Part shown: one piece after another, positions 20,533-47,491 of the stretch
How positions within the stretch are numbered: position 1 is the stretch's first letter
Layout: each line of letters starts with the position of its first letter
Source of the DNA: Alphaproteobacteria bacterium
GTDB taxonomy: Bacteria; Pseudomonadota; Alphaproteobacteria; JBFXJJ01
DNA length: 64,000 nucleotides
Reading direction: 5' to 3'
Assembly: GCA_050175015.1 (NCBI GenBank)
Contig: JBFXJJ010000003.1
Location: 145,998 to 209,997, forward strand
Notes under the pieces: generated by a model
What the model was told of the DNA's origin: nothing
The model's database searches: none
The model's input: the letters and a program-made list of their open reading frames with translations, nothing else
Translations under genes and position numbers: made by a program

Positions 20533-20542
20533 TTTTACTCCT

Positions 20543-21883: not shown

Positions 21884-21892
21884 TTTTACCCT

Positions 21893-24460: not shown

Positions 24461-27055
24461 TTACCTGTCCTTCATACTAAGAGCGCCAGTAAAGCACATC
24501 TTCGTACAATAGGTACAGCCAACGCATTTATTAGGATCAAATACAGGTTTGCGGTTAGCATCAAGTGTTACTGCTTGATAACCACAGTTAGTACAATTTC
24601 CGCAAGATAAGCAAAGATCTTGGTTGCAAGTTGGAATTTGCTTGGTTGCAGGAAGATCCATAAAGTCAGTAATAGGGTTAGGCAAAGCACAGCCGATAAG
24701 TTCATTAACAGATTTAATTCTTTTAGCTTCTAATAAGTGAGAAAGTCCAGAATTAAGTTCTTTTATAATATGAACGCCGTGTTTCATTGCAATGGAGCAG
24801 AATTGAACATTTCTAACGCCAAGGGCAAGGAAGTTTGCTGCGGCTCTGTAATCCATTGGACCGCCGTTGCCTGAAATGAAGACGCCGAGAGGTGCGGCAT
24901 TAGCTAATGTTAAATAGCTGATAGGGAGCACGCCCTCGCCAGCCATACCAGCAACAACACCTTCGTCCCATTTACTATTGCCATCTTTTCTTGGTCTAAA
25001 GCCAAGAGTAGGGAAAGAGTTAGCAAGAGTTATTCCTACTTTCGATTTAGGATAATTTGCCATTGCGCCTTTAACCGCATTAATAATAGGAACGATGGAG
25101 GTAACCGCTGCGGTTAATTTGAAAATTTTAGGAATGTCAGGATTGCCTGCTTCTAAGACATATTCAATAATTTGTTGAGTTAGAGCCGCATTCTGGGAAA
25201 CAATATCCCCTTCGGTGCCATCACCGCCTTGAGGGCAGGAAAGGCTGTATTCAACCCCGATAACGCCTGCATCTTCAAGTTTTTTAGTGTTCGACTGCCA
25301 GCCTTTGCGGTCTGATTCTTCGTGTCCCGTAACAGGACCGCCGGTTGATGCCATTGTTAATCTGTCAGGATATTTTTTCCTTAGCTCTTCAACTTCACGG
25401 CAAACTCTTTCTAAGGCGTGATCAGAAACGTTATCGCAGTTAGCAAAAGTTGATTTAGTATAAGCAAACATATATCCAGCAGGAACGTGAATTGGAATAC
25501 CATCAAATGATGTTTTAAGAACACCGCCTGTCCAGCCATTTTGATATGCAAGCTTCATCTGATCGATACCGTCGGTGTGAGGCGCTGCTGACAAAATGAA
25601 AGGAGATGACATTTTAAAGCCGAAGAAATCACAAGTTAAATCAACAGGATTGGTATTAATACCTTCAACAGAGGTACGGCTTTTAGCTCTTTGTTTAACT
25701 AAAACCGAGGTTTTTTTCAAACTTTCATCGGTTTTTGTGCCATTTAAAAGAGCGTCAATATCGAGAGCTGCATTCTTACCAGAAGCAACAGCTTCAACAG
25801 CGGTTGAACCACCGTGAACACAATCGCCAGCATAAAATATTTTAGGATTTTTATCACTTTGGGTTTTATGACTGCCGCCAAGATATGATGCCTTGCCGCC
25901 AATAGCTAAAATAACTAGGTCAAAATCAGGACGTTTTACAGATGTTCCTGCAATATCAACTAACTTGCCTTCGTTGTTGTTAGTCGTTTTACAGGTTGTA
26001 AGCGTCTTTTTGCCATTTTCTTCAGTTATTTTTTCAACTCTGGTTCTGGTTGTAATATCAATTTTAGCGTCAAGTAAAAGCTGTCTTTCGTGTGATGTTA
26101 AACGCATATCTGCAACCGTTCTTCTAACAAACATTTCAACTTGAGAAGAACCAAGTCTTTTAGCTTCAGTTGCACAGTCTACAGCCACGGCTCCGCCGCC
26201 AATAATAGCAACGTTACCTTTGGTTTTATATTTTGCGGTATCTTTCAAATATTCCGTGAAAGGAAGCGCATTTTCAAGTTCGCCGTCAACTCCTAAGACA
26301 GAAAAATCAGGTTCGCCAACCGCAATCAAAACAGCATCAAAACCTTCCTTTAATAAACTTTCAGCATCTTCAACTTTAGTGTTTGATTTTAAAGTAATAT
26401 GGCTGGCTTCAAGCGTGAACTCATAATCTGCTTTGATGGCATCATCAGGCAGACGGCAATCTGGAATAAGAGAAGCGGCACCGCCTAAAACGTTTCTTTC
26501 ATCAAAAAGGGTGATTTCATAGCCTTTTCTTCCTAGGAAAGCAGCAGCTCCAATGCCCGCAGGTCCAGCGCCGATAACTGCTACTTTTCTGCCGTTTTTC
26601 GCTGGTTTTGCAGGAGCTTTAAGAACGCCTAAGTCTCGAGCTTTTTTGATGACGGTTGCTTGAATAGCAGGAATATTAATAGCTTTATCAAAGTTTTTCT
26701 TAGAGCAAGCACCCATACAAAGATTATCAGGGCAGATAATGCCGCAAACGTGTCCCAAAGGGTTTGCTGCTAAAATTTCTTTAGCCGCTCTGGCTATATC
26801 TTGTGGGGCTCCTTGTTTTGCTGCCATAATAAAGTCAGCAGGAGAACAGTGAACAGGGCAGCCTTCAAGACAAGGCTTATCTGCGCAGTATAAACATCTA
26901 TCAATTTCAGCTTGCAGCTGAGCATCAGTTAAATAAAGATTATTAGTCAAAATTTGCTCCTTAAAAATTATTAAGATTTTTTTATTAGAAACGATTCCAA
27001 AGATTCTTTGCAGCTTCCATAGATTTTGCCGCAGCTTCTTTTTCATCAACATCAA
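24461..27055 (-). CDS. Dihydropyrimidine-dehydrogenase-like flavo-iron-sulfur oxidoreductase (YgfK/PreT-PreA fusion type)
   Basis: N-terminal Cys cluster (CLYCADKPCLEGCPVHC). Two dinucleotide folds (VAVIGAGPAGIGAA and VAIIGGGAVAVDCA). DHODH-like barrel. C-terminal 2x[4Fe-4S] ferredoxin (CLSCGNCTNC...CVGCTYCTKMC). 864 aa. Confidence 0.7.
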   Translation of the reverse strand: MMLMKKKLRQNLWKLQRIFGIVSNKKILIIFKEQILTNNLYLTDAQLQAEIDRCLYCADKPCLEGCPVHCSPADFIMAAKQGAPQDIARAAKEILAANPLGHVCGIICPDNLCMGACSKKNFDKAINIPAIQATVIKKARDLGVLKAPAKPAKNGRKVAVIGAGPAGIGAAAFLGRKGYEITLFDERNVLGGAASLIPDCRLPDDAIKADYEFTLEASHITLKSNTKVEDAESLLKEGFDAVLIAVGEPDFSVLGVDGELENALPFTEYLKDTAKYKTKGNVAIIGGGAVAVDCATEAKRLGSSQVEMFVRRTVADMRLTSHERQLLLDAKIDITTRTRVEKITEENGKKTLTTCKTTNNNEGKLVDIAGTSVKRPDFDLVILAIGGKASYLGGSHKTQSDKNPKIFYAGDCVHGGSTAVEAVASGKNAALDIDALLNGTKTDESLKKTSVLVKQRAKSRTSVEGINTNPVDLTCDFFGFKMSSPFILSAAPHTDGIDQMKLAYQNGWTGGVLKTSFDGIPIHVPAGYMFAYTKSTFANCDNVSDHALERVCREVEELRKKYPDRLTMASTGGPVTGHEESDRKGWQSNTKKLEDAGVIGVEYSLSCPQGGDGTEGDIVSQNAALTQQIIEYVLEAGNPDIPKIFKLTAAVTSIVPIINAVKGAMANYPKSKVGITLANSFPTLGFRPRKDGNSKWDEGVVAGMAGEGVLPISYLTLANAAPLGVFISGNGGPMDYRAAANFLALGVRNVQFCSIAMKHGVHIIKELNSGLSHLLEAKRIKSVNELIGCALPNPITDFMDLPATKQIPTCNQDLCLSCGNCTNCGYQAVTLDANRKPVFDPNKCVGCTYCTKMCFTGALSMKDR

Positions 27056-28316
27056 TCGTTAGATGTTTGTTTTCCATTAGGACTTTTCCAGCACAAATTG
27101 TGGTATCAACCTGAGCAGAATTAAAGCCAAAAACTAAATGTCCTAAGACATTGCTGGCATCAAGAGGGGTAGGTGGGTATTGATCCAGCATTACAATATC
27201 AGCGGCTCCGCCTTCTTTAAGTTCACCTAAACCGATGTTGTTCCAGATACGGTTAGCAATTTTAGGATTGTTAAACCATAAGGCAGATGCTCCTTCAACA
27301 AAGCCCGCGGAAGGATTTCTTTGGTTGTATTTTTGCGCCCAGATGGCACAGCGAACTTCTTCACGCATATCAACTGTCATTGCATCTGTTCCGAGACCAA
27401 CGAGAATGCCTTTTTCAAACATTTTAACCGTGTTGGCAATTCCAACAGCATTATTCAAATTAGACTGAGGATTGTGAACAACCATAGTATTCGTTTTTGC
27501 TAAAAGATCTAATTCATTGTCATTGGTATGAACGCAGTGAACACATATGGTGTCTTTGCCTAGAACGCCCATTTTGTTGAAGCGTTCAACAACTCTTAAA
27601 CCGTGTTCTTTGACGCAGGCATCTTCATCACTTTCAGCTTCTGCCGTGTGAACGTGAAAACCTGTTTTTAGATCTTTAGCGAAAGAAACGCATTTTTCTA
27701 AAGTTTTATCACTTACGGTAAAAGAGGCGTGAAGTCCGAATAACGCCGTTAGCTGCTCATCATTTTCTTTCTGGCAGCGTTTAATAAAGTTGACGTTTTC
27801 CTCAATACCTTCTTCGGCAATTTTTTCACCGTCTCTATCGGAAACTTCATAGCATAAACAAGAGCGCAAACCAGTTTCTTTAACAGCTTCGGCAATGGTA
27901 TCAAGAGAACCTGTAATTGCAAAAGGACTGGCGTGATGATCGATTAAAGTTGTGGTTCCGCTTTTTATAGCGGCGATAAGGGGGAATAAGGCACTATAGT
28001 AGGTGTCTTCTAGTGAAAGTTTGGTATCTAAACGCCACCAAAGGTTTTTAAGCACTCCTCCAAAATCATAAGCTGGTTCAGCTTTGCCAAGACCTCTTAC
28101 TAAGGTGCTGTAAAAATGCATATGAGCATTAATGATTCCTGGGATAACGATTCTGCCGTCGGCGTTTATTTCTTTATCAAAAGAGCCTTTGATTTCATCA
28201 TCTTTGGCGATTTTAACAATCTTATTATTTTCAACCAAGATAGAATGATTAGGCAAAACGCGACCGTTTTCACCACCTGTAATAACAAGTGCATTGCGAA
28301 CGATTAAATTGGACAT
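26985..28316 (-). CDS. SsnA-like amidohydrolase (guanine/cytosine deaminase-chlorohydrolase family)
   Basis: HxH metal motif (INAHMHF) and TIM-barrel amidohydrolase layout. Probable start MSNLIVRNALVI at 28316 with a GGAG RBS. Confidence 0.65.
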   Translation of the reverse strand: MSNLIVRNALVITGGENGRVLPNHSILVENNKIVKIAKDDEIKGSFDKEINADGRIVIPGIINAHMHFYSTLVRGLGKAEPAYDFGGVLKNLWWRLDTKLSLEDTYYSALFPLIAAIKSGTTTLIDHHASPFAITGSLDTIAEAVKETGLRSCLCYEVSDRDGEKIAEEGIEENVNFIKRCQKENDEQLTALFGLHASFTVSDKTLEKCVSFAKDLKTGFHVHTAEAESDEDACVKEHGLRVVERFNKMGVLGKDTICVHCVHTNDNELDLLAKTNTMVVHNPQSNLNNAVGIANTVKMFEKGILVGLGTDAMTVDMREEVRCAIWAQKYNQRNPSAGFVEGASALWFNNPKIANRIWNNIGLGELKEGGAADIVMLDQYPPTPLDASNVLGHLVFGFNSAQVDTTICAGKVLMENKHLTIDVDEKEAAAKSMEAAKNLWNRF

Positions 28317-28387
28317 ATTTTTCTCCAGATAAAAATATTTTGAACTAAATATTTTATTTGGTTTATCCAAAATTTACAACGATTTTC

Positions 28388-29749
28388 TCAATTTTGTTTA
28401 TTCTCGTCATCATCTTCCTGTGAAGGTGCTGCTACTTCCTTCAATCTTTCTTTTTCATCAGCAGGAAGAAACTTATCCGCTAAAGCCCAATACAAAGATT
28501 GTTCACAAAAAGTCTTTGAAACCGCATAAGAAATCATAGATACGGCGAGTAGAGAGATGGTTGTTTTTTGGTCGCTGGTCATTTCCATAACAATAACAGC
28601 TGCAGTTATTGGAGAGTGGACAACGCTAGAGAAATAGCCTGCCATACACATAATGATTATAACAGATTTTGTCATATCTGGAAAAAAGTCAGCGATATTA
28701 GCGCCAATGCCTGCTCCAATAGATAGTGATGGCGCAAAAATGCCGCCAGGAATACCACTTATATATGAAAGAATGGTTGCAAGAAATTTATAAAAACCAA
28801 ACCATAAGGTTTCAATATCTTGCCCTTGAATTAACTTACAAGCTTGTTCATATCCTGTGCCAAAAGTAAGATTACCAGAAAGTCTTCCTATGATTGCAAT
28901 TAAAAGACCGCAGATCGCTGCAAAAATTACAGGACGGGCTTTTGTGAAAGCACTTAGCTTTTTGCCAAGAACTTTATCGGTATGGATAATGGTATAATTA
29001 AAGATTGTGCCGATAAGACCGCAGACTATACCGCATAAAATTACTAGATAGACCCAGTTTTCGTGAGAATCTATTAAAAGATTACTGCGTCCGAAATAGG
29101 TATAGTTGCCAGTAATAGACATAGAAACAATACCAGCAATAACAACGGTTGTTAAAACGATACCGCTGGTTTTGGTTTCAAAGGAACGGCTTAATTCTTC
29201 AATGGCAAAAACAATTCCTGCTAATGGAGTATTAAATGCTGCTGCAACTCCTGCGGCACCTCCTGCCAGAATTAATGATTTTCTAGTCTTGTAACTAGAA
29301 ATATGAAGGAAGCGTCCTAAAAAAGACATAATTGACGCTCCAATCTGAACCGTAGGACCTTCTCTGCCAATTGAAGCTCCGCCACAAAGACCAAGCATTG
29401 TTATAAAAATTTTACCGCAGGCTATTTTCATAGATAAGAGTTTAAAGCATTCGGCTTTTTTGCGAATGTGCATTGCTGCGATAGTCTGTGGAATGCCGCT
29501 GCCTTCAGATCCTTGGAAAAAAGACTTAGTTAAATAAACACCAAAAGCCATAAAAGATGGTGTTATGATTAAGGCAAGCCAATTATTTTTTTCCAGCATT
29601 TTAAAGAAAAGAGTGTCGGCAAAAAAACTGCCTTTGGCAAAAAAAACGGCAACAATCCCGACTGCCATAGCGCCAAGCCAATACACAAGGCGATATAACC
29701 ATATATTGGGTGATACCCACCACCGGTGATTATGCCTGAAAATTATCAT
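28388..29749 (-). CDS. ClC family voltage-gated chloride channel/H+-Cl- antiporter
   Basis: GSGIPQ, GREGP and GxFxP selectivity-filter motifs. About 10-12 TM helices. Confidence 0.8.
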   Translation of the reverse strand: MIIFRHNHRWWVSPNIWLYRLVYWLGAMAVGIVAVFFAKGSFFADTLFFKMLEKNNWLALIITPSFMAFGVYLTKSFFQGSEGSGIPQTIAAMHIRKKAECFKLLSMKIACGKIFITMLGLCGGASIGREGPTVQIGASIMSFLGRFLHISSYKTRKSLILAGGAAGVAAAFNTPLAGIVFAIEELSRSFETKTSGIVLTTVVIAGIVSMSITGNYTYFGRSNLLIDSHENWVYLVILCGIVCGLIGTIFNYTIIHTDKVLGKKLSAFTKARPVIFAAICGLLIAIIGRLSGNLTFGTGYEQACKLIQGQDIETLWFGFYKFLATILSYISGIPGGIFAPSLSIGAGIGANIADFFPDMTKSVIIIMCMAGYFSSVVHSPITAAVIVMEMTSDQKTTISLLAVSMISYAVSKTFCEQSLYWALADKFLPADEKERLKEVAAPSQEDDDENKQN

Positions 29750-29991
29750 TTTGAAATGTTTGTTTTCTTTGTTATTTTTTAGTCTTACACAACTAAAGAC
29801 AAGGTATATTACTTAAAATAATCAATGTCAACCAAGCTTTGAGAGTTTTTTTAAATGTTTTCGTATTAAAATTTTTTAAGAGATACAGCAAAGTTTTAGG
29901 ATAAAATTGTTATAGATTTTAAGGCGCGGTATTTTTTAGATTGAATAGTAATTTTTTTGTTTTTGTTAGAAGCAAATAACTTGGCAAATTA

Positions 29992-31137
29992 CTAAATTCT
30001 AACTCCTAATAGGCGGATTAAAGCAGTTTCGCAAGGAACAGATTCATTTAAGGCAATCATATGACCTAGGCCTTGAGCTTCGAGTTTACCAATTTCGTCA
30101 ACGACTAATATATCGGCATTTTTGCGGGCATCTATAATTGTTTTTTTAGCATAACTCCAAGCATCATCATAAAAGTCAAACCAGAGTCCATTTTTTGCAG
30201 GAGTTTCTCGGCGGCGAGCTAGTGGTATATGTTCACCTGTTGCGACATTCTCAACGTCATATCCTGAAGAATCAAAATCACCATTAAGCGAAGGTTGTAA
30301 AATGCCGCCAACTTTAAAACCTTGTTGCGATAATTCCGAAACAACACGTTTTAAAAAGCTGGTTTTTCCGCTTCTTTTCTCGCCTTTTATTTCTAAAGTA
30401 AAAGGAGGAACGTCAGGAAGAAGAGGCTTAATTTCCTCCCAATTATCTTTAGTATTAAGGTTAAAACTTCCAAAATCATTAGAGTATGGTAAGGCAAAGC
30501 CAATTTTATCCATAATATTATCAAAACGAGCTGTTTGAGGGGTTTCTTTTAAAACGTCTAATGCCGTTGTTTGAGACAACCAGACAGGCTGAATCTTAGT
30601 ATTGTTTTTTTCATAGAATAACGCATTATGATTGCTGTTATAAGCGGCATTACAAAGAGTGTGCCAAGAAGATATTTGGCAGGATATACGATCAACGGCG
30701 TGAAATAAAATGCCTTTTTCCAAATCATTTTTAAAAAAGCGTATTCCGGCCTGAACCGAAGAGAATGGTCCTTGTTCATAATCGTTATTAACGACAATAG
30801 AGAGATTTAAACTGCCGAGTTTAACATCGCACGGGGGCGTCAAACCATTTAAAAAGCTAAGTTCTTCAAAATAAGAGGATATATGATGCCCGAGCACGAT
30901 AACCGCTTTTTTTCCTCCGGCTCTACGAAAAACATCAAGCAGCAACATAATTAATGGCCGGTCTTGATGTTTTAAGAGCCCCTTAGGATATCCCATACGG
31001 CTTGATTTACCTCCTGCCATAATAATTAATGGCGGTAAATCATTAGCACTAATCAAGGATTTTATTGATGTTCTCACTTCTTCCCAGTGTGATAACATTA
31101 TGTTCCTTTGTTTTTCTGCTAGTTTCACGAGAGCCAA
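29992..31137 (-). CDS. Fusion: MocA/YgfJ-like molybdenum-cofactor nucleotidyltransferase + P-loop NTPase (THEP1/MobB/YqeC-like)
   Basis: N-terminal LIIMAGGKSSRMGYPKGLL (MobA-like NTP-transferase). C-terminal Walker A GEKRSGKTSFLKR and Walker B LVVDEIGKLE. Confidence 0.6.
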   Translation of the reverse strand: MALVKLAEKQRNIMLSHWEEVRTSIKSLISANDLPPLIIMAGGKSSRMGYPKGLLKHQDRPLIMLLLDVFRRAGGKKAVIVLGHHISSYFEELSFLNGLTPPCDVKLGSLNLSIVVNNDYEQGPFSSVQAGIRFFKNDLEKGILFHAVDRISCQISSWHTLCNAAYNSNHNALFYEKNNTKIQPVWLSQTTALDVLKETPQTARFDNIMDKIGFALPYSNDFGSFNLNTKDNWEEIKPLLPDVPPFTLEIKGEKRSGKTSFLKRVVSELSQQGFKVGGILQPSLNGDFDSSGYDVENVATGEHIPLARRRETPAKNGLWFDFYDDAWSYAKKTIIDARKNADILVVDEIGKLEAQGLGHMIALNESVPCETALIRLLGVRI

Positions 31138-32590
31138 TACCTGTCAGCAAAAGACCAATGTTTTCATTAGAGTTTATTAATCCTTTAGTTGCCATTTCGA
31201 TAACAGCGGCAACGCTAGCGGTTCCTGTAGCCGAAACATTAATATTAGTTGCTTTTTTGGTAAGCTTGTTTGCTTTATCTAAAGTTTTTTCATCTGCGAT
31301 TAATGGTAAACCTCCAGATTCAAGCATACCGATTACGACTTCTAAGCCATCATACGTCGTATCGTCTAAGATGCCTTCCGCTATGCTTTCAGGAACATTG
31401 TCAGCCCAAGCTTTAAAGAAATTACTGCGCTGTGCAGCAACATCAAGTAAGACTTTTTGTAAGGCTTGGTTTGATGAAAAGTTAGAAGACAGCTCTTTTG
31501 CAAAACTGTTAAGCTCTTGAGGATATTTTTCTAAAATATCTTTAGGATCTATGTCAGTTTCAACGGCGCTTTTTAAATTTTCAGCTAAAGTCACAGCTCC
31601 TTTTAAAGAAGCTTCTTTCAATATCGCAAAGTAAGATTTGGCAAGCGGATAGCAACTTGCAGTCTGCACAGTATAAAATCTAGGCAGTTTTTTTATTATT
31701 CCAAGTTTTAAAAGATTTTGTATGCCATTGATCATAGATTTAGCTAGGCCGCCGCCTCCAATTTGAACAATAAAGGCATCAATGTCTGTTTGATATTTTT
31801 CCATATCAAAGAAAAACTCATAGGCTAAAGGTTCTGCTCCCTCAATGCTTGACCAAATATCATAACCATAGCAAGAAAAGGGAACAAAATTAAGCTTGTT
31901 CAAAGCTTCTCTAAAACGGATATTGCAGGGATCTCCTTCACCAACTTGTCCCTCGCGAGATACTTTTACGACTTTGGCATCTAAATTGGTTAAAAGATTT
32001 TCAATTTTGCTGTCTACATGTTCTGGAACAAAAGTATAAAGAGGATAATCAAAAGCTTTTGCCGCAGCAGAGGCACCTAAAGCTGCATTGCCGCAACTGA
32101 AAATAGCTAAAGGCTTTTTATGTCCGCCTTTTAACATTCTTAATGTTTCCAAGTAGATAATAGAACCGGCTAAATGACGGGATTTATGTGAACCCATAAG
32201 CTGCAGAGTTTCGTTTTTAGCAAAAATATTGCAATCAGCCTTTATTGATTTAGCAAGCTCGTCAGCTTTGAATAATGGCGTTCTAACAAATCCTTTGCTT
32301 GTATTTTTTTCACACATTTTGCTGGCAGTTTTTACCATTTTCTGCCATTCATCAGATTTATTATGAACATTAGCCAAGTGCCAGCTTCCAAGTAGTTCTT
32401 TAAAAGCATTAAAGGACAATTCGCCGCTGTTATAACGATTTCTAATTTCTTCAATTAAATTTTGAGGAAAATCACCATCTTCAAATTTCAAAACAAAAGG
32501 ATGAGACGCTGCCTCGGTACTTTCGGGGCAGCGCAATAATCCTTCTTCCAAATTATATGATTTTCTACAAATTGGACAGTAAAGTTTCAT
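31049..32590 (-). CDS. PLP-dependent fold-type-II enzyme (threonine-synthase-like) with N-terminal Cys-rich zinc-ribbon-like motif
   Basis: GSHKSRH lysine motif (compare tGSFKDRg). Begins CPICRKSYNLEEGLLRCPE. 513 aa. Its start is 1 nt from the upstream gene stop. Confidence 0.5.
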   Translation of the reverse strand: MKLYCPICRKSYNLEEGLLRCPESTEAASHPFVLKFEDGDFPQNLIEEIRNRYNSGELSFNAFKELLGSWHLANVHNKSDEWQKMVKTASKMCEKNTSKGFVRTPLFKADELAKSIKADCNIFAKNETLQLMGSHKSRHLAGSIIYLETLRMLKGGHKKPLAIFSCGNAALGASAAAKAFDYPLYTFVPEHVDSKIENLLTNLDAKVVKVSREGQVGEGDPCNIRFREALNKLNFVPFSCYGYDIWSSIEGAEPLAYEFFFDMEKYQTDIDAFIVQIGGGGLAKSMINGIQNLLKLGIIKKLPRFYTVQTASCYPLAKSYFAILKEASLKGAVTLAENLKSAVETDIDPKDILEKYPQELNSFAKELSSNFSSNQALQKVLLDVAAQRSNFFKAWADNVPESIAEGILDDTTYDGLEVVIGMLESGGLPLIADEKTLDKANKLTKKATNINVSATGTASVAAVIEMATKGLINSNENIGLLLTGIGSRETSRKTKEHNVITLGRSENINKILD

Positions 32591-32591
32591 C

Positions 32592-34058
32592 TTATAAAGC
32601 TTTCAATAGGCCAGTCATATCATTGAATTCACGAATTAAATCGTCCCATTCACTTACTTGAGCGAATATTGAATCCCATGTTTCTGGTTTCCAAAGTTCA
32701 TTCAAATCTTTGCTTTCTTTTCCTTGCTGTTCAACCCAAGTAAAGTATTTCAAGTTATGGATAGCTTTTCTATCATAATATGAAAGTTCTTTTAAGTTGG
32801 ATTTGTCAGCAGCATAGAGGCAAGATTCTAAATCACAATTTCCTCTGATTTCACCATATTCACCATGTTTCTCACGTTCTTCAATGACACGAGAAGTATA
32901 CATTTCGGCAGAATCTGTAAACATTGTGTAGATTACATCGTTTTCATCCATTTCATAATATTTTGCCATTTTGACAGCAGAAACAAGGTTAGAAATAGAT
33001 GAAATACCCATAAGGTTAAGATTTTTGATAACTTCGTCAGAAACACCTCTAGACTTAAGAACTTTGTGTCCAGATGGTTCGTTGAAGAGACGGAGAAGTC
33101 TCATGCAATCTTCATCGTCAATAGCAACAACCATATCAGTATTACGGGAGTTATGAACCCAAGGAACGTGTTTATCACCAATACCTTCAATGCGATGTCC
33201 ACCAAAACCGTTAAGTAACAAAGTTGGGCACTGTAAAGCTTCAGATGCTGCGATTTTGAGGCTTGGAGATACTTTCTTTAAATAATCGCCAGCACCAATA
33301 GTTCCAGCACTTCCTGTCGCACTTACAAAGCCTGAAAGTCTTTTTTGTTTATTAGACAGAGTTCCAAAATGCTCTTCAATAGCTTTAGCTGTAACGTGAT
33401 AGTGCCAAATTGGATTACCAAATTCATCAAATTGATTGAAAATTACGCAGTCTTTACGGTTTTTGCGTATATCCCAGCAAGCGTCATAGATTTCTTTAAC
33501 GTTGCTTTCACATCCCGGAGTCGCAATGATTTCGGCACCGATACTTTTTAACCAATCAAAGCGTTCTCTGCTCATTTCTTCAGGAAGAATAGCAACAGAA
33601 GTACAGCCAAGCAAAGTACCGTCAAAAGCACCGCCACGACAGTAGTTGCCAGTTGATGGCCATACTGCTTTTTGTGTGGTTGGGTCAAATGATCCGCTAA
33701 CTAATCTTGGGGCTAAACAGCCGAAAGCAGCACCAACTTTATGAGCACCAGTTGGAAAATACTTACCAACCATACCAATAATTCTAGCTTTTACGCCGGT
33801 GATTTCTGAAGGAATTTCGAAAGTGTTAACATCGCCATAGAGTTCCGTTTTAGGATCGTTTCTCCAAGTGATACGGAAAAGGTTAATTGGGTTTACATCC
33901 CAAAATCCAACGCCTTTTAATTTTTTCTTGATTTTCTCAGGAATTTTGTCAGGGTGGCGCATTTCCTCAAATGTTGGGACAATAATATTACGTTCACGAC
34001 AACGCTCAACTGTTTTTGCTAGGACCTTTTTATCAATGTTTTCAATTATTTTTTTCAT
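32592..34058 (-). CDS. PLP-dependent fold-type-II enzyme, TrpB/cysteine-synthase-like
   Basis: FPTGAHKVGAAF (compare the TrpB HTGAHKIN lysine motif). 488 aa. First gene of the long operon. Confidence 0.5.
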   Translation of the reverse strand: MKKIIENIDKKVLAKTVERCRERNIIVPTFEEMRHPDKIPEKIKKKLKGVGFWDVNPINLFRITWRNDPKTELYGDVNTFEIPSEITGVKARIIGMVGKYFPTGAHKVGAAFGCLAPRLVSGSFDPTTQKAVWPSTGNYCRGGAFDGTLLGCTSVAILPEEMSRERFDWLKSIGAEIIATPGCESNVKEIYDACWDIRKNRKDCVIFNQFDEFGNPIWHYHVTAKAIEEHFGTLSNKQKRLSGFVSATGSAGTIGAGDYLKKVSPSLKIAASEALQCPTLLLNGFGGHRIEGIGDKHVPWVHNSRNTDMVVAIDDEDCMRLLRLFNEPSGHKVLKSRGVSDEVIKNLNLMGISSISNLVSAVKMAKYYEMDENDVIYTMFTDSAEMYTSRVIEEREKHGEYGEIRGNCDLESCLYAADKSNLKELSYYDRKAIHNLKYFTWVEQQGKESKDLNELWKPETWDSIFAQVSEWDDLIREFNDMTGLLKAL

Positions 34059-39604: not shown

Positions 39605-42600
39605 ATGCAAAATTTATATGACGTTTTTTCAGAATACCCAAACCTTTTAGCTAGTACTATAGGTATTATCGGCGTTATTTTTGCACTTAACTATTTAAAC
39701 AAACAAGAAAGCGCTCCTTTTGGTTTGATGTATATCAATCAGGGATTTGCTGCTTTAATTCTAACCATAGTGATGAAAATTCCAGAATATATGGATTTGG
39801 AATTTTCCTATCTATCGGTTTTTGAGCTGGTTTTTTTAGGGGCAACTCTTTGCTTGTTTATCTCTGGAGGACTGTCGTTAAAAGGCGTTAAAGTGAAGTT
39901 TTATGTTACTCTTGCTTTAATGGTGGTGATTTTACTTTGGATTTTTAATGTTGTTTTTTTAAGCGGAAGCTATGTCTTAATGTTTTTGACTAAATATCTG
40001 CTTCCAACATTGGCTTATGGTTTTCTTAGCTATAGCTTTTTGACGAGGAAAACGCAGTCAAGGAAATCAGGCTTTAAGGCGTTTGGCTTTTTTGCTATGG
40101 CCTCCTCAATATATTATTTTGCGCAGATTTTATCTTTTATAAGTTTTTTACATGATCTTTGGTTCTTTATGCCCCTAATGTATGCGGGCTTTGCCTTTAG
40201 TATTATGCTGATGGCTAACAACTTGATTCAGCATCAATGTGATGTATATAAAAACGAAGCCGAAGATATTAAAAGCAAGCTGAGGCTTATAATTCAGTCT
40301 TCACCTTTTCCAATTACAATATCCCGTCTTAAAGACGACCAGATGATATTAGTTAATAAAAGTGCGGCGGATCTTTTTGGCATTAATCCTAATAATCCGC
40401 AGTCATATCGTATGGTTGACTTCTTTGCCGATCAAAATAATAGGAAAGAGTTATTAAATAAACTGAATGCTCATAAAGTTGTTGAAGATTTTGAAGTACT
40501 GGTTAAGGGAAGAAACACAGGAAAGCCATTTTGGCTTTTGCTATCGGCCAGAGTTATTGACTTTGAGTATAGTGTGGCTCTTTATTGCGCGTTCCAAGAT
40601 ATTACTAACCGTAAAAATAAAGAAAAAGAGTTGTTTGATCAAGCAACGAGAGATCCTCTAACGGGAGCATTCAACCGCAGACAATTTGAAGAGATCGTTA
40701 AAAAAGAATTTGCCCGCTGCAAACGTTATGGTGGAACATTCTGTATTATTATGGTTGATGCTGATCACTTTAAAAATGTTAATGATACTTATGGTCACCA
40801 AACTGGTGACGAAGTTCTTAAAGCTCTATCAAAAAGCTTTTTTGATACTTTGAGAGAAACTGATGCTGTGTTTAGATTTGGTGGTGAGGAATTTGTTTTA
40901 CTGCTTCCAGAAATTACATTGGAAAATGCATATAGTGTAGCAGAAAGACTTAGAACTATTATTTCTGAGATTGAGGTTTTAGCAGAGGATAAAGAAAGCA
41001 TTGTTAGGTTCACTGTTAGTATGGGTATTGTAGAATCTACTCAGGCAGAAGAGCCCAACGATTTGGTTAAGCTTTCGGACGATGCGTTATATGAGGCAAA
41101 AGAAACAGGTAGAAATAAAGTTGTTATTTCAAAAGCTGTTCGTCAGGAGGTTAAACCTATAAGCAACAGCACAAATCCAAATCGAGATAATCATGCTAAG
41201 AAAGAATTAGATGAGATAGACAATATTAAGTCTGATTATGATTTTGATGAGGAATTGCCAATAGACGATGACTTCGTATCAGATGGTGGCGGAGTAGGAA
41301 AAATCAAGTTAGCTCCCAAAATTGATATGAATAAAATTCAAAGCGAGATTTCTGCTAAGTTAGAAAAAGATAAAGATGAAGGAGAAGATGCAGAAGAAGC
41401 AGATTCCGTTGATGTTGAACAAGTTTCAGAAGAAAACAATGGAATTCCAGCCCCAGCATTTAACAGTGATTCTTATGATGAACTCCCCGCAGAGCCGGCT
41501 TTTGAAGGTGAAAGCTATGATGCCGAGCTTCCCTCGCTTGATGAAGAAACCTTATTGCCAGAATATGAAGAACAGCCTCTTGATGATAGCTTGGCTATTC
41601 CAGAGTATGGAGAAACTTCTTCTGAAAGTTATGAAGATCTTCCCGCTGAGGAGCAGTTGGTATATGATGAATTACCAGCAGAAGAGGCGGTTTATGATGA
41701 AGTTCCATTAGAGGACGTTCAAGATTACGGTGAACTTCCTGCCGAAGGCGCGGTGTACGATGAAACTCATCTTGATGATGAAGCATCTTATGCGGAATTG
41801 CCGCCCGAACAGGGTTTTGAAGATGAAAGCTATGATGCCGAGCTTCCCTCGCTTGATGAAGAAACCTTATTGCCAGAATATGAAGAACAGCCTCTTGATG
41901 ATAGTTTGGCTATTCCAGAATATGGTGAAGCGGTTCCTGAAAGTTATGAAGATCTTCCCGCTGAGGAACCGTTGGCATATGATGAATTACCAGCGGAAGA
42001 ATTGCCAGTATATGACGAACTTCCAGCAGAAGAGGCGGTTTATGATGAAGTTCCATTAGAGGACGTTCAAGATTATGATGAACTTCCTGCCGAAGGCGCG
42101 GTGTACGATGAAACTTCTCTTGATGAAGCATCTTATGCTGAATTGCCGCCCGAACAGGGTTTTGAAGATGAAAGTTATGATGCCGAGCTTCCTCCGCTTG
42201 ATGAAGAAGCCTTATTGCCAGAATATGAAGAACAGTCTCTTGATGAAAGTTTAGCTATTCCAGAATATGGCGAAGCGGTTCCTGAAAGCTATGACGAGCT
42301 TCCCGCAGAGGAACAAGCTTATGATGAGTTACCAGCGGAAGATATGGTTTATGAGGAAGCACCTTTAGAAGATAATCAAGATTACGGTGAGCTCCCCGCA
42401 GAAGAGGCTATTCCAGAATTAGAAATTGAAAAAGAGGTTTTGCCTGATACAAAAGAACTTCCTATGAAAAAAATGACGGCATCACAACCAATGCCATCTC
42501 CTACGATTATAAGGAAGCCAGAGCTGTCAGTTGCTCCTAGTCATTCTGTTCCACCAGCTCCAACTGCAATAAAAACGCCGCAGGCTCAAGGAGCAGTTTC

Positions 42601-42688
42601 AAATCCGCCTTTGGTTAAAAAAGTTGTAATTAAAAAAGTGGTAAAAAAGGTAGTTAAGGTTATTAAAAAACCAGTTCCGAAACCATAA
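39605..42688 (+). CDS. Multi-TM sensor diguanylate cyclase (PAS-GGDEF, active-site GGEEF) with long acidic tandem-repeat tail and basic Lys/Val C-terminus
   Basis: About 6-7 TM N-terminal domain, a PAS-like segment, and RDPLTGAFNRRQFEE...DADHFKNVNDTYGH...RFGGEEF (I-site RxxD present). It continues with repeats and ends PPLVKKVVIKKVVKKVVKVIKKPVPKP. Confidence 0.8.
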   Translation: MQNLYDVFSEYPNLLASTIGIIGVIFALNYLNKQESAPFGLMYINQGFAALILTIVMKIPEYMDLEFSYLSVFELVFLGATLCLFISGGLSLKGVKVKFYVTLALMVVILLWIFNVVFLSGSYVLMFLTKYLLPTLAYGFLSYSFLTRKTQSRKSGFKAFGFFAMASSIYYFAQILSFISFLHDLWFFMPLMYAGFAFSIMLMANNLIQHQCDVYKNEAEDIKSKLRLIIQSSPFPITISRLKDDQMILVNKSAADLFGINPNNPQSYRMVDFFADQNNRKELLNKLNAHKVVEDFEVLVKGRNTGKPFWLLLSARVIDFEYSVALYCAFQDITNRKNKEKELFDQATRDPLTGAFNRRQFEEIVKKEFARCKRYGGTFCIIMVDADHFKNVNDTYGHQTGDEVLKALSKSFFDTLRETDAVFRFGGEEFVLLLPEITLENAYSVAERLRTIISEIEVLAEDKESIVRFTVSMGIVESTQAEEPNDLVKLSDDALYEAKETGRNKVVISKAVRQEVKPISNSTNPNRDNHAKKELDEIDNIKSDYDFDEELPIDDDFVSDGGGVGKIKLAPKIDMNKIQSEISAKLEKDKDEGEDAEEADSVDVEQVSEENNGIPAPAFNSDSYDELPAEPAFEGESYDAELPSLDEETLLPEYEEQPLDDSLAIPEYGETSSESYEDLPAEEQLVYDELPAEEAVYDEVPLEDVQDYGELPAEGAVYDETHLDDEASYAELPPEQGFEDESYDAELPSLDEETLLPEYEEQPLDDSLAIPEYGEAVPESYEDLPAEEPLAYDELPAEELPVYDELPAEEAVYDEVPLEDVQDYDELPAEGAVYDETSLDEASYAELPPEQGFEDESYDAELPPLDEEALLPEYEEQSLDESLAIPEYGEAVPESYDELPAEEQAYDELPAEDMVYEEAPLEDNQDYGELPAEEAIPELEIEKEVLPDTKELPMKKMTASQPMPSPTIIRKPELSVAPSHSVPPAPTAIKTPQAQGAVSNPPLVKKVVIKKVVKKVVKVIKKPVPKP
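41460..42430 (+). repeat. Intragenic tandem DNA repeat, ~3 copies of a 315-345 bp unit (near-identical), encoding acidic YDELPAE/EYGE-rich units
   Basis: Unit starts (gaaag[c/t]tatgatgccgagcttcc...) at 41510, 41825 and 42170. Copy 2 carries a 30-nt internal duplication (ELPVYDELPAE). Confidence 0.85.
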
Positions 42689-42977: not shown

Positions 42978-44573
42978 TTATGAATCAGGATTTATTCCAT
43001 ATTCCTGCCATAATTTTTTTAATTTAGGATAGTTTTCTTGATCAACAGTACTGGTCAAAAATTTTCCCGCGGTAATTGTTGAAGACCAGTAATAAGCATC
43101 TAGCCCAGCTTGGCGTTTTAGTTCATTTAAAAACAGTTTTTTATCTTTTATATATGACCATACCTCAGGTAAGAGCAAAGCCAATTTTTTATCTTTTTCC
43201 TGAAAGATAACTCCATCAATATTGGGCTCAATTTGATCAAGCAATTCTCTTTCGTTAGTGAAAGATAACGGATAAGGAGGGGTTAGAAGAGAGATTTTTA
43301 CTGAAATAAAGGGAAGTTCTTTTTTATTAATAGGTTTGAAATTATTATCGTAAAAAGCAGCAAAGAAAGCATTGGTCGCAATGTCTTGCAGAATATTTTC
43401 CTTGGGCGTTAAAGAACCCATAGCACCTCTAATAGATCCAGATTTATTGATGCTCACAAAAGAAATTCCAAAACTTCTTAGTTCTTTAGGATAATCTTTT
43501 GGGTTAACAATAAGGGGTTTTCCTGTTTTGATTCCATTTATAATCGAATCAAAAGCGATTTTAACTAAGGTTTTGCCATACTTCTCAGTAATATCATTAA
43601 GTATTTGCTGTTCTTTTACTAACGGATTAACAAGAGGAGCATAGATTGCAAAGCTGGCATAGCCTACGACGCTGTCCCTTCGAATGTCGACATCACCAGA
43701 ACTTTTGATATCTAAGATTTTTATAGCATAGCCATATTGGTTGGCATAATTCAAAAGAGCTTGAATTGCTAAATAACCAGAAGCCTTAGCCTTATCGAGA
43801 TTTCTAATGTTGTATCCCAAAATAGCTTTAGATGTTGCGATATCTGCTTTTTTGCCTTCCATATAACTTAAATTGGTAGACAAATTGGAGCATACAATAA
43901 GCAACGTATCATCATCTTTAAGAGCCTTATTAATGAATAAGTCCATTTCTCCGATGTTGGTTTCTCCAAAAATTGCAGGAACAATTGTAACGCTGCCAAG
44001 TGTTTCATAGATAAAAGGCAGTTGAATTTCGATGCTGTGTTCATTTTTATGAACGCTTGCCAGCATTCTAACAAAAGGTAAATCTAAAAGAGCTTTGTTT
44101 GTTGGCTGATCTACTGTAACAGATCCAAAAGGCATTTGCCATTTAGCCGCTGGAGAAAGAGCTATGCCTGAAAATTTGCTGTAAGTTGCAGGTGCAAGAA
44201 TTACAACTTTTTTTATTTTGTTTTTTAAGCTTTTTATTTGGGCATAAGCCGTTCCTGCGGTAATGCCAGAATAACCTAGTGATGAATGAGGAACGATTAA
44301 GGCTTTTATCGGATATTGTTCATTAACAATCTTGGCATCTTTCATAAGATTATTAATTTGTTTTCGTAGTTGGTCGCTGTTTGCGGGATAAAAAAGATTA
44401 GCAACCGCAGGTTTGCGGTCTTCAATCTTTGATGTTTCAATCTGATTTTGCGTTTTAAATAACAATTCAGGAAAAAAAATTACAAACCAAAAAGCTACCG
44501 TTATTATTAAAAGAAAAACAATGAAAAATAACTCTAAGCGAAAAGATTTGTCTGTTGTTTTTAGTGAAAGCAT
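42978..44573 (-). CDS. Membrane-anchored fusion of Memo1-like (AmmeMemoRadiSam protein B) and AMMECR1-like (protein A) domains
   Basis: N-terminal TM helix. ALIVPHSSLGYSGITAG resembles Memo HAGYxYSG. The C-terminal ~190 aa has an AMMECR1-like ...SGSIRGAMGS... motif (consensus LRGCIG, with Cys replaced by Ala). Confidence 0.55.
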   Translation of the reverse strand: MLSLKTTDKSFRLELFFIVFLLIITVAFWFVIFFPELLFKTQNQIETSKIEDRKPAVANLFYPANSDQLRKQINNLMKDAKIVNEQYPIKALIVPHSSLGYSGITAGTAYAQIKSLKNKIKKVVILAPATYSKFSGIALSPAAKWQMPFGSVTVDQPTNKALLDLPFVRMLASVHKNEHSIEIQLPFIYETLGSVTIVPAIFGETNIGEMDLFINKALKDDDTLLIVCSNLSTNLSYMEGKKADIATSKAILGYNIRNLDKAKASGYLAIQALLNYANQYGYAIKILDIKSSGDVDIRRDSVVGYASFAIYAPLVNPLVKEQQILNDITEKYGKTLVKIAFDSIINGIKTGKPLIVNPKDYPKELRSFGISFVSINKSGSIRGAMGSLTPKENILQDIATNAFFAAFYDNNFKPINKKELPFISVKISLLTPPYPLSFTNERELLDQIEPNIDGVIFQEKDKKLALLLPEVWSYIKDKKLFLNELKRQAGLDAYYWSSTITAGKFLTSTVDQENYPKLKKLWQEYGINPDS

Positions 44574-44687
44574 AAAAAACCAAAATCCAATTAAAATTTT
44601 AAAGAAGCCATATCTTTTTTGTTTTATTTATCATAATGTAGTTTTTTTTAAAATTAAACTTAAAAGAAAAAATTAAGGTCTATTTAT

Positions 44688-46061
44688 ATGATATATCCCA
44701 ATCGTGTAGATATTAAAAAATTCCGATTTGTTAGTTGCGATTTTGATGAAACGCTAAACCAAGCATCTTTAGTTTATGCTTTTGATGACAAAATAACGTT
44801 TGAAGAAACCTTTGTTTTTGAAAATGCCCCGCACGTTTCCCAAGAAAGAATGCCTGCTCTTAAAAGATGTTTAAAATATCTTCATTTAGCGGCAGGAGTA
44901 AGTTACTACAAAGCTTTTATTCCCAAAGAAATAGCCGTTGAAACAACGACTTTATCTAAAGATGAAGCCGATTTTTTTAACCAATTTTATTTATCTGGAC
45001 TAGGCGAGTTTAGTTTTAAGAATAATCTCAATCTTCAAGATATTATCAAATTTCCTTATGAGGCAGATTATCAAGCAGAAAAAATAGCCAATGATTTTAG
45101 ATTAAAAGAGCAGCCGATAGTTCCCGTTGGCGGCGGCAAAGATTCTATTGTAACTATTGCGGCGCTAAAAAATGCTGGGCTTAAGCCTGTTTTGTTTTCG
45201 GTTGGTTTTCCTGCGCCCATAGCTGGCACAGTAGAAATAGCTGGGCTTAAAAACATTGTCGTTACAAGAAAAATCGCTAAATCTTTATTGGAATTAAACC
45301 AAAAATTAAAAGAATGTGATGCCTTTAACGGTCATATCCCTGTTACTGGTGTTTTTGCTTTTTTGCTGGCAATGTCGGCGGTGATATATGATTTCGATGC
45401 GGTGTTAATGTCTAACGAGCGTTCGGCTAATTCTGAAAACATTGTTCGAGATGATGGTTTTCTTATTAATCATCAATGGAGCAAATCTTTTGAATTTGAA
45501 ATGATGTTTAAAAAATTTGCAGATAGGTATCTTCTTGATAATTTTAAGTATTTTTCTTTTTTGAGACCGCTTTCAGAGCTTTATATTGCTAAGCTCTTTT
45601 CCCGCAGCCAAGATTTCTTTGATGTTTTCACAAGCTGTAATCATGCTTTTGCCATTATGCAGGAGAATCGCAGCAAAGGTTGGTGTCTAAATTGTGATAA
45701 ATGCCGGTTTGTTTATTTAGCATTGGCACCATTTATTGAAAAAAGTCGAATGATAGCGATTTTTGGTAAAGATTTACTAGACGACGAAACTCAGGAAAAA
45801 GGCTTTTCCGAATTGCTAGGACTTTCAAAATATAAGCCTTTTGAATGTGTCGGTGAAATAAAAGAGTGTCAAGCCGCTCTATTTCTGCTTAATCAAAAAC
45901 CAGAATGGCAGTCTAGCTATATCGTTAACAAATTGGCTAAACAGTTAAATACTAGTGATACTAAAATGACAAAGATAGTTGAAGATGTTTTGAGTTTATC
46001 AAAAGAACATCAGATTCCAGAAAAATATATGGAGGCATTAAATGCTTATCTCAGAGCTTAA
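44688..46061 (+). CDS. ATP-pyrophosphatase-like protein (PP-loop-like VGGGKDS) with C-terminal Cys cluster; candidate MurL-type epimerase partner of MurD2
   Basis: IVPVGGGKDSIVTIAAL (compare the SGGxDS PP-loop) and CLNCDKCRF. Overlaps the start of the MurD-like gene by 20 nt. Confidence 0.4.
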   Translation: MIYPNRVDIKKFRFVSCDFDETLNQASLVYAFDDKITFEETFVFENAPHVSQERMPALKRCLKYLHLAAGVSYYKAFIPKEIAVETTTLSKDEADFFNQFYLSGLGEFSFKNNLNLQDIIKFPYEADYQAEKIANDFRLKEQPIVPVGGGKDSIVTIAALKNAGLKPVLFSVGFPAPIAGTVEIAGLKNIVVTRKIAKSLLELNQKLKECDAFNGHIPVTGVFAFLLAMSAVIYDFDAVLMSNERSANSENIVRDDGFLINHQWSKSFEFEMMFKKFADRYLLDNFKYFSFLRPLSELYIAKLFSRSQDFFDVFTSCNHAFAIMQENRSKGWCLNCDKCRFVYLALAPFIEKSRMIAIFGKDLLDDETQEKGFSELLGLSKYKPFECVGEIKECQAALFLLNQKPEWQSSYIVNKLAKQLNTSDTKMTKIVEDVLSLSKEHQIPEKYMEALNAYLRA

Positions 46062-47406
46062 AGGCAAAAAAATTGTTATATGGGGATTAGGACAAGAAGG
46101 CAAAGCAACCTTAAGATGTCTCAGAGCTAAAGGTATCGATTCTGAAATAGTTATTTTTAATGACAAACCTATGAGCGTTGATGATAAAGAAGCGTTGATT
46201 CATTTTTCTCCCCTTAAATTTGCTTCAATGGAAGATTTAGATGTTCTTATGAATTCTGATGTCGTTATCAAAGCACCTGGGGTTAGCCTTTATCGTGATG
46301 AAGTAATTAAAGCAAAACAAAAAGGCATTATTTTTACTTCAGCAACTAATATCTGGTTTGCAGAGAGTCGTAAGAACAATCCCGATATGAAAATCATCGG
46401 GGTAACTGGAACTAAGGGCAAAAGCACAACATCAAGCTTAATTGCGCATTACTTAAGAGTTGCAGGTTATGAAACAGCGATTGGCGGCAATATCGGTGTG
46501 CCTTTAGTTGATTTTTTAACTAGTGATAAAAAATTTGAAGTAACGGTTGCAGAGATATCTAGTTATCAAGCTAGTGATTTACAATATTCTCCTGATGTTG
46601 GTGTGCTGCTTAATCTTTATCCTGAACATATCGATTGGCATAAATCACACGATCGTTACTATGATGATAAGCTTAATTTGTTTGCTCATAGAGGCACAAA
46701 CCCTGTTGTTTTAAACTGCAATGATCCAAGGACAAAAGAAAAGTGTGCTAATTGGGATAATGTAGTTTATTTTAATGACAAATCGGGGATTTATGTCGGC
46801 GATGGCTTTATTATGGACGGCATAAAACGTTTAGAGGCGTTTTCTGAAATTAAAATCAGAGGTTATCATAATTATTGCAATATCTGCACAGCTCTAACTG
46901 TGGTTAAAGTGCTGGGCTGTGATGTCGCACTTTGTGCCAAAGCAACGGGCGATTTTGATGGTTTACTGCATCGTTTGCAGATTGTGGGAGAAAAAGAGAG
47001 CAAGATTTTTGTCAATGACAGCATTTCAACAACACCTGAGACCGCAGTGGCTGGAATTGAGGCTTTTGCAGACAAACCGATTGTTTTGATTGCTGGCGGT
47101 TATGATAGAGAACAGAATTACGAAGTTTTAGCTAAAGCGGTTCTTAAATATGACGTTAAAGCTGTTGTAACAATGCATACAACGGGCGCAAGAATTGCAG
47201 AAACCGTTGGAAAAGCTATTTCTGAGGCAGCAAAAGATGTTGCCGTTATTCAAACATCAGGACTTGAAGAAGCGTTTAAAACAGCTAATAATTATACGCC
47301 TAAAGGTGGGGTTGTTTTAATGTCGCCTGCCGCTCCAAGTTATGGCGCTTATAAAGATTTTAAAGAACGGGGAGAGCATTTTATCCGCCTGTTTAAAGAT
47401 TTATAA
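46042..47406 (+). CDS. MurD-family UDP-N-acetylmuramoyl-L-alanine:glutamate ligase paralog (candidate MurD2)
   Basis: Motifs align with MurD along the whole length: IVIWGLGQEG, GVTGTKGKSTTSSL, GGNIG, EISSYQ, LNLYPEHIDWH, GYHNYCN, GLLHRLQ...NDSISTTPE, LMSPAAPSYGAYKDFKERGEHF. Not located in a dcw cluster. Confidence 0.75.
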   Translation: MLISELKGKKIVIWGLGQEGKATLRCLRAKGIDSEIVIFNDKPMSVDDKEALIHFSPLKFASMEDLDVLMNSDVVIKAPGVSLYRDEVIKAKQKGIIFTSATNIWFAESRKNNPDMKIIGVTGTKGKSTTSSLIAHYLRVAGYETAIGGNIGVPLVDFLTSDKKFEVTVAEISSYQASDLQYSPDVGVLLNLYPEHIDWHKSHDRYYDDKLNLFAHRGTNPVVLNCNDPRTKEKCANWDNVVYFNDKSGIYVGDGFIMDGIKRLEAFSEIKIRGYHNYCNICTALTVVKVLGCDVALCAKATGDFDGLLHRLQIVGEKESKIFVNDSISTTPETAVAGIEAFADKPIVLIAGGYDREQNYEVLAKAVLKYDVKAVVTMHTTGARIAETVGKAISEAAKDVAVIQTSGLEEAFKTANNYTPKGGVVLMSPAAPSYGAYKDFKERGEHFIRLFKDL

Positions 47407-47491
47407 AATAAAGAAATTTAAGATAAAAATTTGCTTTTATAAGTGTTTTAACTTATTTTATGATACTTATAAGATATGTTAATTTTATTGT

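Follow-up and report, generated by a model that had tools for sequence, protein, structure and literature searches.

A probable murL-murD2 gene pair for peptidoglycan D-glutamate in an uncultured, low-GC alphaproteobacterium

The MurL/MurD2 system, which supplies peptidoglycan with D-glutamate, was reportedly described by Feng et al. in 2017. In Xanthomonas oryzae, MurL corresponds to XOO_1319 and MurD2 to XOO_1320, with orthologues in Stenotrophomonas (SmltD), Micromonospora, and Salinispora, and the MurL enzymes of X. oryzae, Micromonospora, and Salinispora catalyze an ATP/Mg-dependent, unidirectional L-to-D epimerization with the release of AMP (PMC8788868, PMC5808125). Organisms with MurD2/MurL were reported to be without D-glutamate-forming genes, and XOO_1320 carries the MurD annotation in X. 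oryzae (PMC8788868, PMC5808125). The published distribution of the system covers "relatively few genera", namely, the Xanthomonadales, Devosia, Pelagibacterium, Parvularcula, and the Micromonosporaceae (PMC8788868). In the present study, we analyzed a gene pair in a chromosomal stretch of 64,000 nucleotides (contig JBFXJJ010000003.1, positions 145,998 to 209,997; hereafter the window) with a guanine plus cytosine (GC) content of 37%, from an uncultured, low-GC alphaproteobacterium, a host lineage that lies outside this published list.

The pair consists of two open reading frames (ORFs), both on the + strand, as are all features of the pair described below: ORF1 (44688..46061, 457 amino acids), the product of which is predicted to be a MurL homologue, and ORF2 (46042..47406, 454 amino acids), which is predicted to encode a MurD2, i.e., a UDP-MurNAc-L-Ala:L-glutamate ligase homologue. 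The matches of the two proteins to their families, at E values of 1e-90 to 1e-139, are not attributable to chance at the level of sequence comparison. We estimate a probability of approximately 0.85 that the pair is murL-murD2 and provides peptidoglycan with D-glutamate by this alternative pathway. The original prediction had proposed a candidate MurL/MurD2 pair, and this proposal is now supported by profile matches, specificity residues, and gene pairing, while its gene coordinates and 20-nucleotide overlap proved exact to the base.

Regarding the organization of the pair, ORF1 ends with the stop codon TAA at 46059-46061, and, as read from the sequence, its 3' end shares 20 nucleotides (46042..46061) with the 5' end of murD2, which suggests translational coupling of the two genes. 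A GGAGG Shine-Dalgarno motif for murD2 (46031..46035) is located within the 3' end of murL, 6 nucleotides before the ATG at 46042, and the pair probably forms a translationally coupled two-gene operon. The GC content of the pair was 36.2% versus 36.8% for the window, and a promoter and terminator scan of 44400-48900 returned counts at the level of shuffled sequences. In the proposed pathway, MurD2 (ORF2) would ligate L-glutamate, and not D-glutamate, onto UDP-MurNAc-L-Ala with ATP, MurL would then flip the attached L-glutamate to D-glutamate, and the product would rejoin the normal pathway at MurE. In contrast to the E. coli route through MurI and MurD, the stereochemistry would be set by MurL after ligation, and not by MurI before it; free D-glutamate would not be needed, and hence neither would a glutamate racemase. 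We infer that the two proteins encoded here are active in this manner and that the genome has no murI.

ORF1 was matched end to end by the NCBIfam MurL model NF041275 (E=1.7e-139; residues 6-453 aligned with positions 4-445 of the 447-position model), and precomputed Pfam annotation assigned to it the domains MurL_N (PF26299) and MurL_epimerase_C (PF26298). Its identity to MurL proteins of the Xanthomonadales was in the range of 38-40%, including 39% to that of Stenotrophomonas maltophilia (E=1e-119) and 40% to that of Xanthomonas. A local Pfam scan of ORF1, with a copy of the database that apparently predates PF26298 and PF26299, found no family at E values up to 10, including QueC (PF06508). 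In an alignment of 80 MurL sequences from Alphaproteobacteria, Xanthomonadales (Xanthomonas and Stenotrophomonas), Actinobacteria, and Sericytochromatia, in which the window protein was included, 57 positions were invariant, and ORF1 retained all 57 of them. Considering these sequence comparisons together, ORF1 is a MurL homologue.

Several of the invariant positions of the alignment fall into short motifs. The PP-loop motif VGGGKDS (residues 147-153, 45126..45146), which is invariant from G148 to S153, is the predicted loop for binding the pyrophosphate of ATP. The four invariant cysteines of the cluster C317...C333-x2-C336-x2-C339 (45636..45704) form a predicted structural zinc site, and the segment KPFECVGE (residues 383-390, 45834..45857) is invariant throughout, from K383 to E390; H262 and K266 are likewise invariant. 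The original prediction had pointed out a PP-loop-like VGGGKDS motif and a C-terminal CxNCDKC cluster in this protein. The first was found as described, with a QueC-like core in fold comparisons (see below), and the second is also present, as CLNCDKC at residues 333-339 (45684-45704), but within the final third of the sequence and not at its C terminus.

ORF2 contains the three Mur-ligase domains, and, as had been noted from the translation, it matches MurD along its whole length: the murD model TIGR01087, which does not separate MurD from MurD2, covered residues 10-452 with 302.7 bits against a cut-off of 211.95. Under identical BLASTP settings, ORF2 scored 239-273 bits (34-37% identity) against the MurD2 proteins of Xanthomonas, Stenotrophomonas, Lysobacter, and Rhodanobacter, versus 142 bits (27.5% identity) against E. 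coli MurD. This comparison, together with the glutamate and arginine residues described below, favors MurD2 over canonical MurD, as had been anticipated.

The residues that determine the specificity of MurD2 were located by aligning ORF2 with E. coli MurD (b0088), allowing for a one-residue offset of the numbering in the literature. In X. oryzae MurD2, Glu197, Arg358, Pro433, and Phe435 replace Asp182, Lys348, Ala414, and Leu416 of E. coli MurD, the double mutation E197D/R358K turns MurD2 into a D-glutamate ligase, and the K319T mutation makes E. coli MurD accept L-glutamate (PMC8788868). ORF2 has Glu195 (46624..46626) at the position of Glu197 in X. oryzae and Asp182 in E. coli, and Arg356 (47107..47109) at that of Arg358 and Lys348, both of which are specificity residues (PMC8788868). 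Pro432-Ser433-Tyr434 (47335..47343) corresponds to Pro433-Ser-Phe435 of X. oryzae MurD2 and to Ala414-Ser415-Leu416 of E. coli MurD, and I328 occupies the position of E. coli Lys319. The catalytic residues K127, E171, H196, and K210 are kept, being the equivalents of the P-loop lysine, Glu157, His183, and carbamylated Lys198 of E. coli MurD, with which ORF2 also shares its three-domain architecture.

The same signature was found in 75 MurD proteins encoded next to murL, in which the glutamate was present in 74, the arginine, the proline, and the isoleucine in all 75, and the fourth position, equivalent to Tyr434, was Phe in 47, Tyr in 27, and Leu in one. The murL-linked MurD proteins of Xanthomonas and Stenotrophomonas carry E-R-P-F. 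The first two positions in canonical MurD proteins of the PDB are D and K in Pseudomonas aeruginosa and T and R in Streptococcus agalactiae. Judging from these residues and from the similarity scores, ORF2 is of the MurD2 type and not a canonical MurD.

The pairing of the two genes was then considered across GTDB species representatives, a scan of which yielded at least 593 MurL-encoding loci; the best 80 of these were used for neighborhood counts. A MurD2-type gene directly followed murL on the same strand in 77 of the 80, and two of the three exceptions were truncated contigs. Among full-length loci, the sole clear exception was that of a Thiotrichales metagenome-assembled genome (MAG; locus L016, murL at 6913-8268), in which no MurD-like gene was present in 18 kb. 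An overlap of 14-26 nucleotides between the murD2 start and the murL stop was the norm in 73 related loci. Natural fusions occurred in both orders, as MurL-MurD2 (P0132, P0241, P0250, and P0282) and as MurD2-MurL (P0355). A further protein, P0380, carries an N-terminal amino-acid kinase domain (PF00696) fused to MurL, a possible sign that the MurL fold also has side functions. Among the matches listed, the nearest MurL relatives of ORF1 showed approximately 50% identity (best 51-52%) and came from gut- or host-associated MAGs, including Acetobacter sp. CAG:977, UBA6411, HGM16787, and a MAG from horse feces.

Neither mraY nor murI was detected by tblastn within 10 kb of murL in any of the best 80 loci, those of Xanthomonas and Stenotrophomonas included, and murL-murD2 therefore normally lies apart from the dcw cluster. 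The present locus follows this pattern. Profile annotation and tblastn with E. coli MurE, MurF, MraY, FtsW, and MurI revealed no mraY, no other dcw genes, no murI, and no second murD within the window, and the tblastn matches to murE and murF were cross-matches to murD2 itself; the observation that the murD-like gene is not in a mraY-murD-ftsW context, as it is in E. coli, thus held for the whole window. The pair resembles that of X. oryzae in the two families that it represents, in the order of murL and then murD2 with abutting or overlapping genes, in its site outside the dcw cluster, in the glutamate, arginine, proline, and aromatic residue of MurD2, and in the invariant residues of MurL. 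It differs in sequence, with the identities given above, and in its host, which is an uncultured alphaproteobacterium of low GC content.

Two observations on genes related to cell wall synthesis may be added here. The DapF protein of the window (8587-9414, - strand) was examined as a possible bifunctional glutamate racemase and rejected; it scored 268 bits with TIGR00652 and only 108 bits with the bifunctional DapF/glutamate racemase model, the cut-off of which is 350 bits, and is, thus, an ordinary diaminopimelate epimerase that is, on profile scores, unlikely to be a source of D-glutamate. In five of the related loci (L003, L004, L005, L007, and L010), which are those of the closest gut-alphaproteobacterial relatives and of a Methylomonas MAG, a SEDS-family (FtsW/RodA-like) gene lies approximately 5-6 kb upstream of murL; no such gene is present in the window.

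The structure of ORF1 was modeled with AlphaFold2 from 37 homologues, with a predicted local distance difference test (pLDDT) score of 93 and a predicted template modeling (pTM) score of 0.93. A fold search with this model matched QueC and Cap9, and approximately 165-175 of the 457 residues superposed on QueC at 14-15% identity. VGGGKDS follows the strand 143-146 in the model and opens the helix 151-162; PP-loops bind the pyrophosphate of ATP at such a strand-to-helix junction. Based on the model, the QueC-like PP-loop core of MurL lies between a beta-rich domain of approximately 130 residues at the N terminus and a helical domain of approximately 100 residues at the C terminus, and no relatives of these two flanking domains were found in the PDB. 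These additional domains and the lack of a family-level sequence match distinguish MurL from QueC (7-cyano-7-deazaguanine synthase), Cap9/QatC, and the nitrile synthetase ArtA. MurL also differs from the QueC-like PP-loop ATP pyrophosphatases in its substrate, which is a UDP-glycopeptide, and in its reaction, which is an epimerization instead of the formation of an amide or nitrile. ORF1 had no sequence match in the PDB, and the structure of MurL is therefore taken to be unsolved; no MurD2 structure was found in the PDB either.

In QueC, a carboxylate is activated by conversion to an acyl-adenylate, and cysteine residues form a zinc site; by analogy, the four invariant cysteines of MurL probably hold a structural zinc in the same manner. 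The QueC-like fold also fits the published stoichiometry of MurL, in which one ATP yields one AMP, and the proposal of the authors that the alpha-carboxylate is adenylated (PMC8788868, PMC5808125). In the mechanism that we envisage, the PP-loop core with its GGGKDS motif would adenylate the alpha-carboxylate of the terminal L-glutamate and thereby render the alpha-proton more acidic, the stereocenter would be inverted by acid/base residues, for which the invariant E386/C387, H262, and K266 are candidates, or via an oxazolone-type intermediate, and hydrolysis of the acyl-adenylate would release AMP and make the reaction irreversible. E386 and C387 are, in view of their conservation, candidate acid/base residues for the inversion at the alpha-carbon. 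Two reviews described MurL as lacking known conserved domains and its mechanism as unclear (PMC8788868, PMC5808125), and in the open-access corpus we found no paper subsequent to these reviews, of 2018 and 2021, that assigned a fold to MurL or extended its distribution. The QueC-like fold and the invariant cysteine, glutamate, and histidine residues provide concrete targets for the mutagenesis of MurL.

Several points weigh against the assignment of the pair to murL-murD2. Identity to the characterized lineages is approximately 35-40%, the score of ORF1 with NF041275 (465.2 bits) is under the 700-bit equivalog cut-off of this model, and position 434 of ORF2 is Tyr, whereas X. oryzae has Phe; moreover, we infer the catalytic residues and the zinc site of MurL from conservation and fold analogy. 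NF041275 was trained on Xanthomonadales, and a score under its cut-off reflects a lineage-specific model and is no evidence against the homology of ORF1, while Tyr is nonetheless found at the fourth position in more than one third of the linked MurD proteins, as counted above. The modest identity to characterized orthologues also leaves room for a pair that has diverged to another substrate, adding and epimerizing another amino acid or modifying a glycopeptide that is not the precursor of peptidoglycan, and P0380, in which the partner of MurL is an amino-acid kinase domain in place of a Mur ligase, may be cited in the same sense. The conservation of all known specificity and catalytic residues of MurD2, the complete set of invariant residues in MurL, and the failure to see a second MurD-type ligase in the window make this divergence very improbable. 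Even less credible is an ordinary, D-glutamate-adding MurD accompanied by an unrelated PP-loop enzyme of the QueC or LarE type or by an endonuclease-domain protein. The score of ORF2 well over the TIGR01087 cut-off, the names given to the two proteins by NCBI, and the QueC fold of the ORF1 core would all agree with it; however, ORF2 has Glu and Arg where D-glutamate ligases have Asp and Lys, at the very residues that switch specificity in experiments, and ORF1 is a full-length match to MurL, of which only the core superposes on QueC. Membership of ORF1 in an unrelated PP-loop family, which the original prediction had itself named as the outcome that would speak against a MurL, was not borne out by the Pfam scan, and the QueC-like fold does not argue against MurL, as it is the fold of the MurL family too. 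The conserved pairing and the fusions likewise speak against an unrelated ORF1.

A more substantial question is whether the pair is functional yet auxiliary or redundant, with murI (or a D-amino-acid aminotransferase) and a canonical dcw murD elsewhere in the genome, so that ORF2 would truly be extra. The absence of a dcw cluster around the pair, both in the window and in the best 80 relatives, leaves room for a separate dcw murD. On the other hand, the same non-dcw site is found in Xanthomonas and Stenotrophomonas, and no murI was detected in the window or within 10 kb of the pair in those 80 relatives; the reviews cited above also report MurD2/MurL organisms without D-glutamate-forming genes, with XOO_1320 as the annotated MurD of X. 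oryzae. We regard redundancy as unlikely. Since such organisms are without these genes and the "MurD" of X. oryzae is MurD2, ORF2 is, by analogy, most likely the sole MurD-type ligase rather than an extra paralog.

When clustered at 90% identity, the MurL family forms no fewer than 7,530 clusters (E<=1e-10), and at 50% identity no fewer than 1,159 (E<=1e-30); its members come from gut- and host-associated Alphaproteobacteria, Sericytochromatia, Parcubacteria, Desulfobacterales, Thiotrichales, Methylomonas, and Thermoleophilia. In the NCBI records of the pair (MGD9638089.1 and MGD9638090.1), which were annotated by the Prokaryotic Genome Annotation Pipeline (PGAP), MurL is named "endonuclease domain-containing protein" and MurD2 "D-glutamate ligase", and the same "endonuclease" name is attached to several other MurL homologues from MAGs. 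This name arises because the sole NCBIfam model for MurL is the Xanthomonadales equivalog, the cut-off of which ORF1 does not reach. MurL proteins outside the Xanthomonadales are systematically misnamed in this way, and the error probably extends to thousands of genomes. The Joint Genome Institute (JGI), by its own naming, calls several close relatives of ORF2 "UDP-N-acetylmuramoyl-L-alanine---L-glutamate ligase". Since Pfam, NCBIfam, and JGI already cover the family, murL-murD2 in the window is an extension and not a discovery, and its modest novelty lies in the host lineage and in a family that is wider than the literature states.

A broader proposal may be made, and we give it an even chance: MurL/MurD2 would be a major and widespread route to D-glutamate that is masked by annotation, and MurL would be a QueC-derived, zinc-containing PP-loop enzyme that adenylates its substrate, with E386/C387 performing the inversion. 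If true, a QueC-derived MurL would for the first time place an enzyme that was described without known domains in a structural and mechanistic framework. In this MAG and its relatives, if murL-murD2 is present, the absence of murI should not be taken for a defective wall pathway or auxotrophy for D-glutamate. The case for MurD2/MurL as a narrow-spectrum drug target, the premise of which is a narrow distribution, is weakened by the size of the family.

The remainder of the window contains the housekeeping genes ffh, ftsY, trmD, asd, dapF, der, bamB, and pmbA. The neighbors of the pair, among them a Memo-AMMECR1 protein, a DUF676 hydrolase, and a GGDEF protein, were considered as parts of the system and rejected because they are not conserved beside murL-murD2 in relatives. 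Divergent from murL, 42978-44573 (- strand) encodes one protein of 531 amino acids in which AmmeMemoRadiSam system protein B (Memo) is fused with protein A (AMMECR1). The product of 39605-42688 (+ strand) is a PAS-GGDEF diguanylate cyclase of the membrane, extended at its C terminus by approximately 500 residues; the extension is made up of tandem repeats that are highly acidic (YDELPAEE, LPEYEEQ, and the like), with a lysine-rich tail at the end.

Downstream of the pair, 48807-56398 (+ strand) encodes four large membrane proteins in tandem (706, 414, 694, and 676 amino acids), which are mutual paralogs with 23-30% identity (E values of 1e-14 to 1e-49), and the 414-residue protein gave a weak, sub-threshold Pfam match to TrbL/VirB6. 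Arrays of VirB6-like genes in tandem recall the Rickettsiales and their rvh type IV secretion systems, and homologues of the VirB6-like membrane proteins are also encoded directly downstream of murD2 in one of the related loci (L013). On the opposite side, purine catabolism of the selenium-dependent type is encoded by a large cluster at 16745-34058 (- strand), which includes XdhA/XdhB, an allantoinase, a selenium-dependent xanthine dehydrogenase, a YgfK-like protein, SsnA, a ClC transporter, a MocA/YgfJ-like protein, and two pyridoxal phosphate-dependent enzymes, and which suggests an anaerobic, possibly gut-associated lifestyle. The Rfam ffh small RNA/leader motif RF01793 (10234-10284, + strand; 40.3 bits) was located directly upstream of ffh, as expected.

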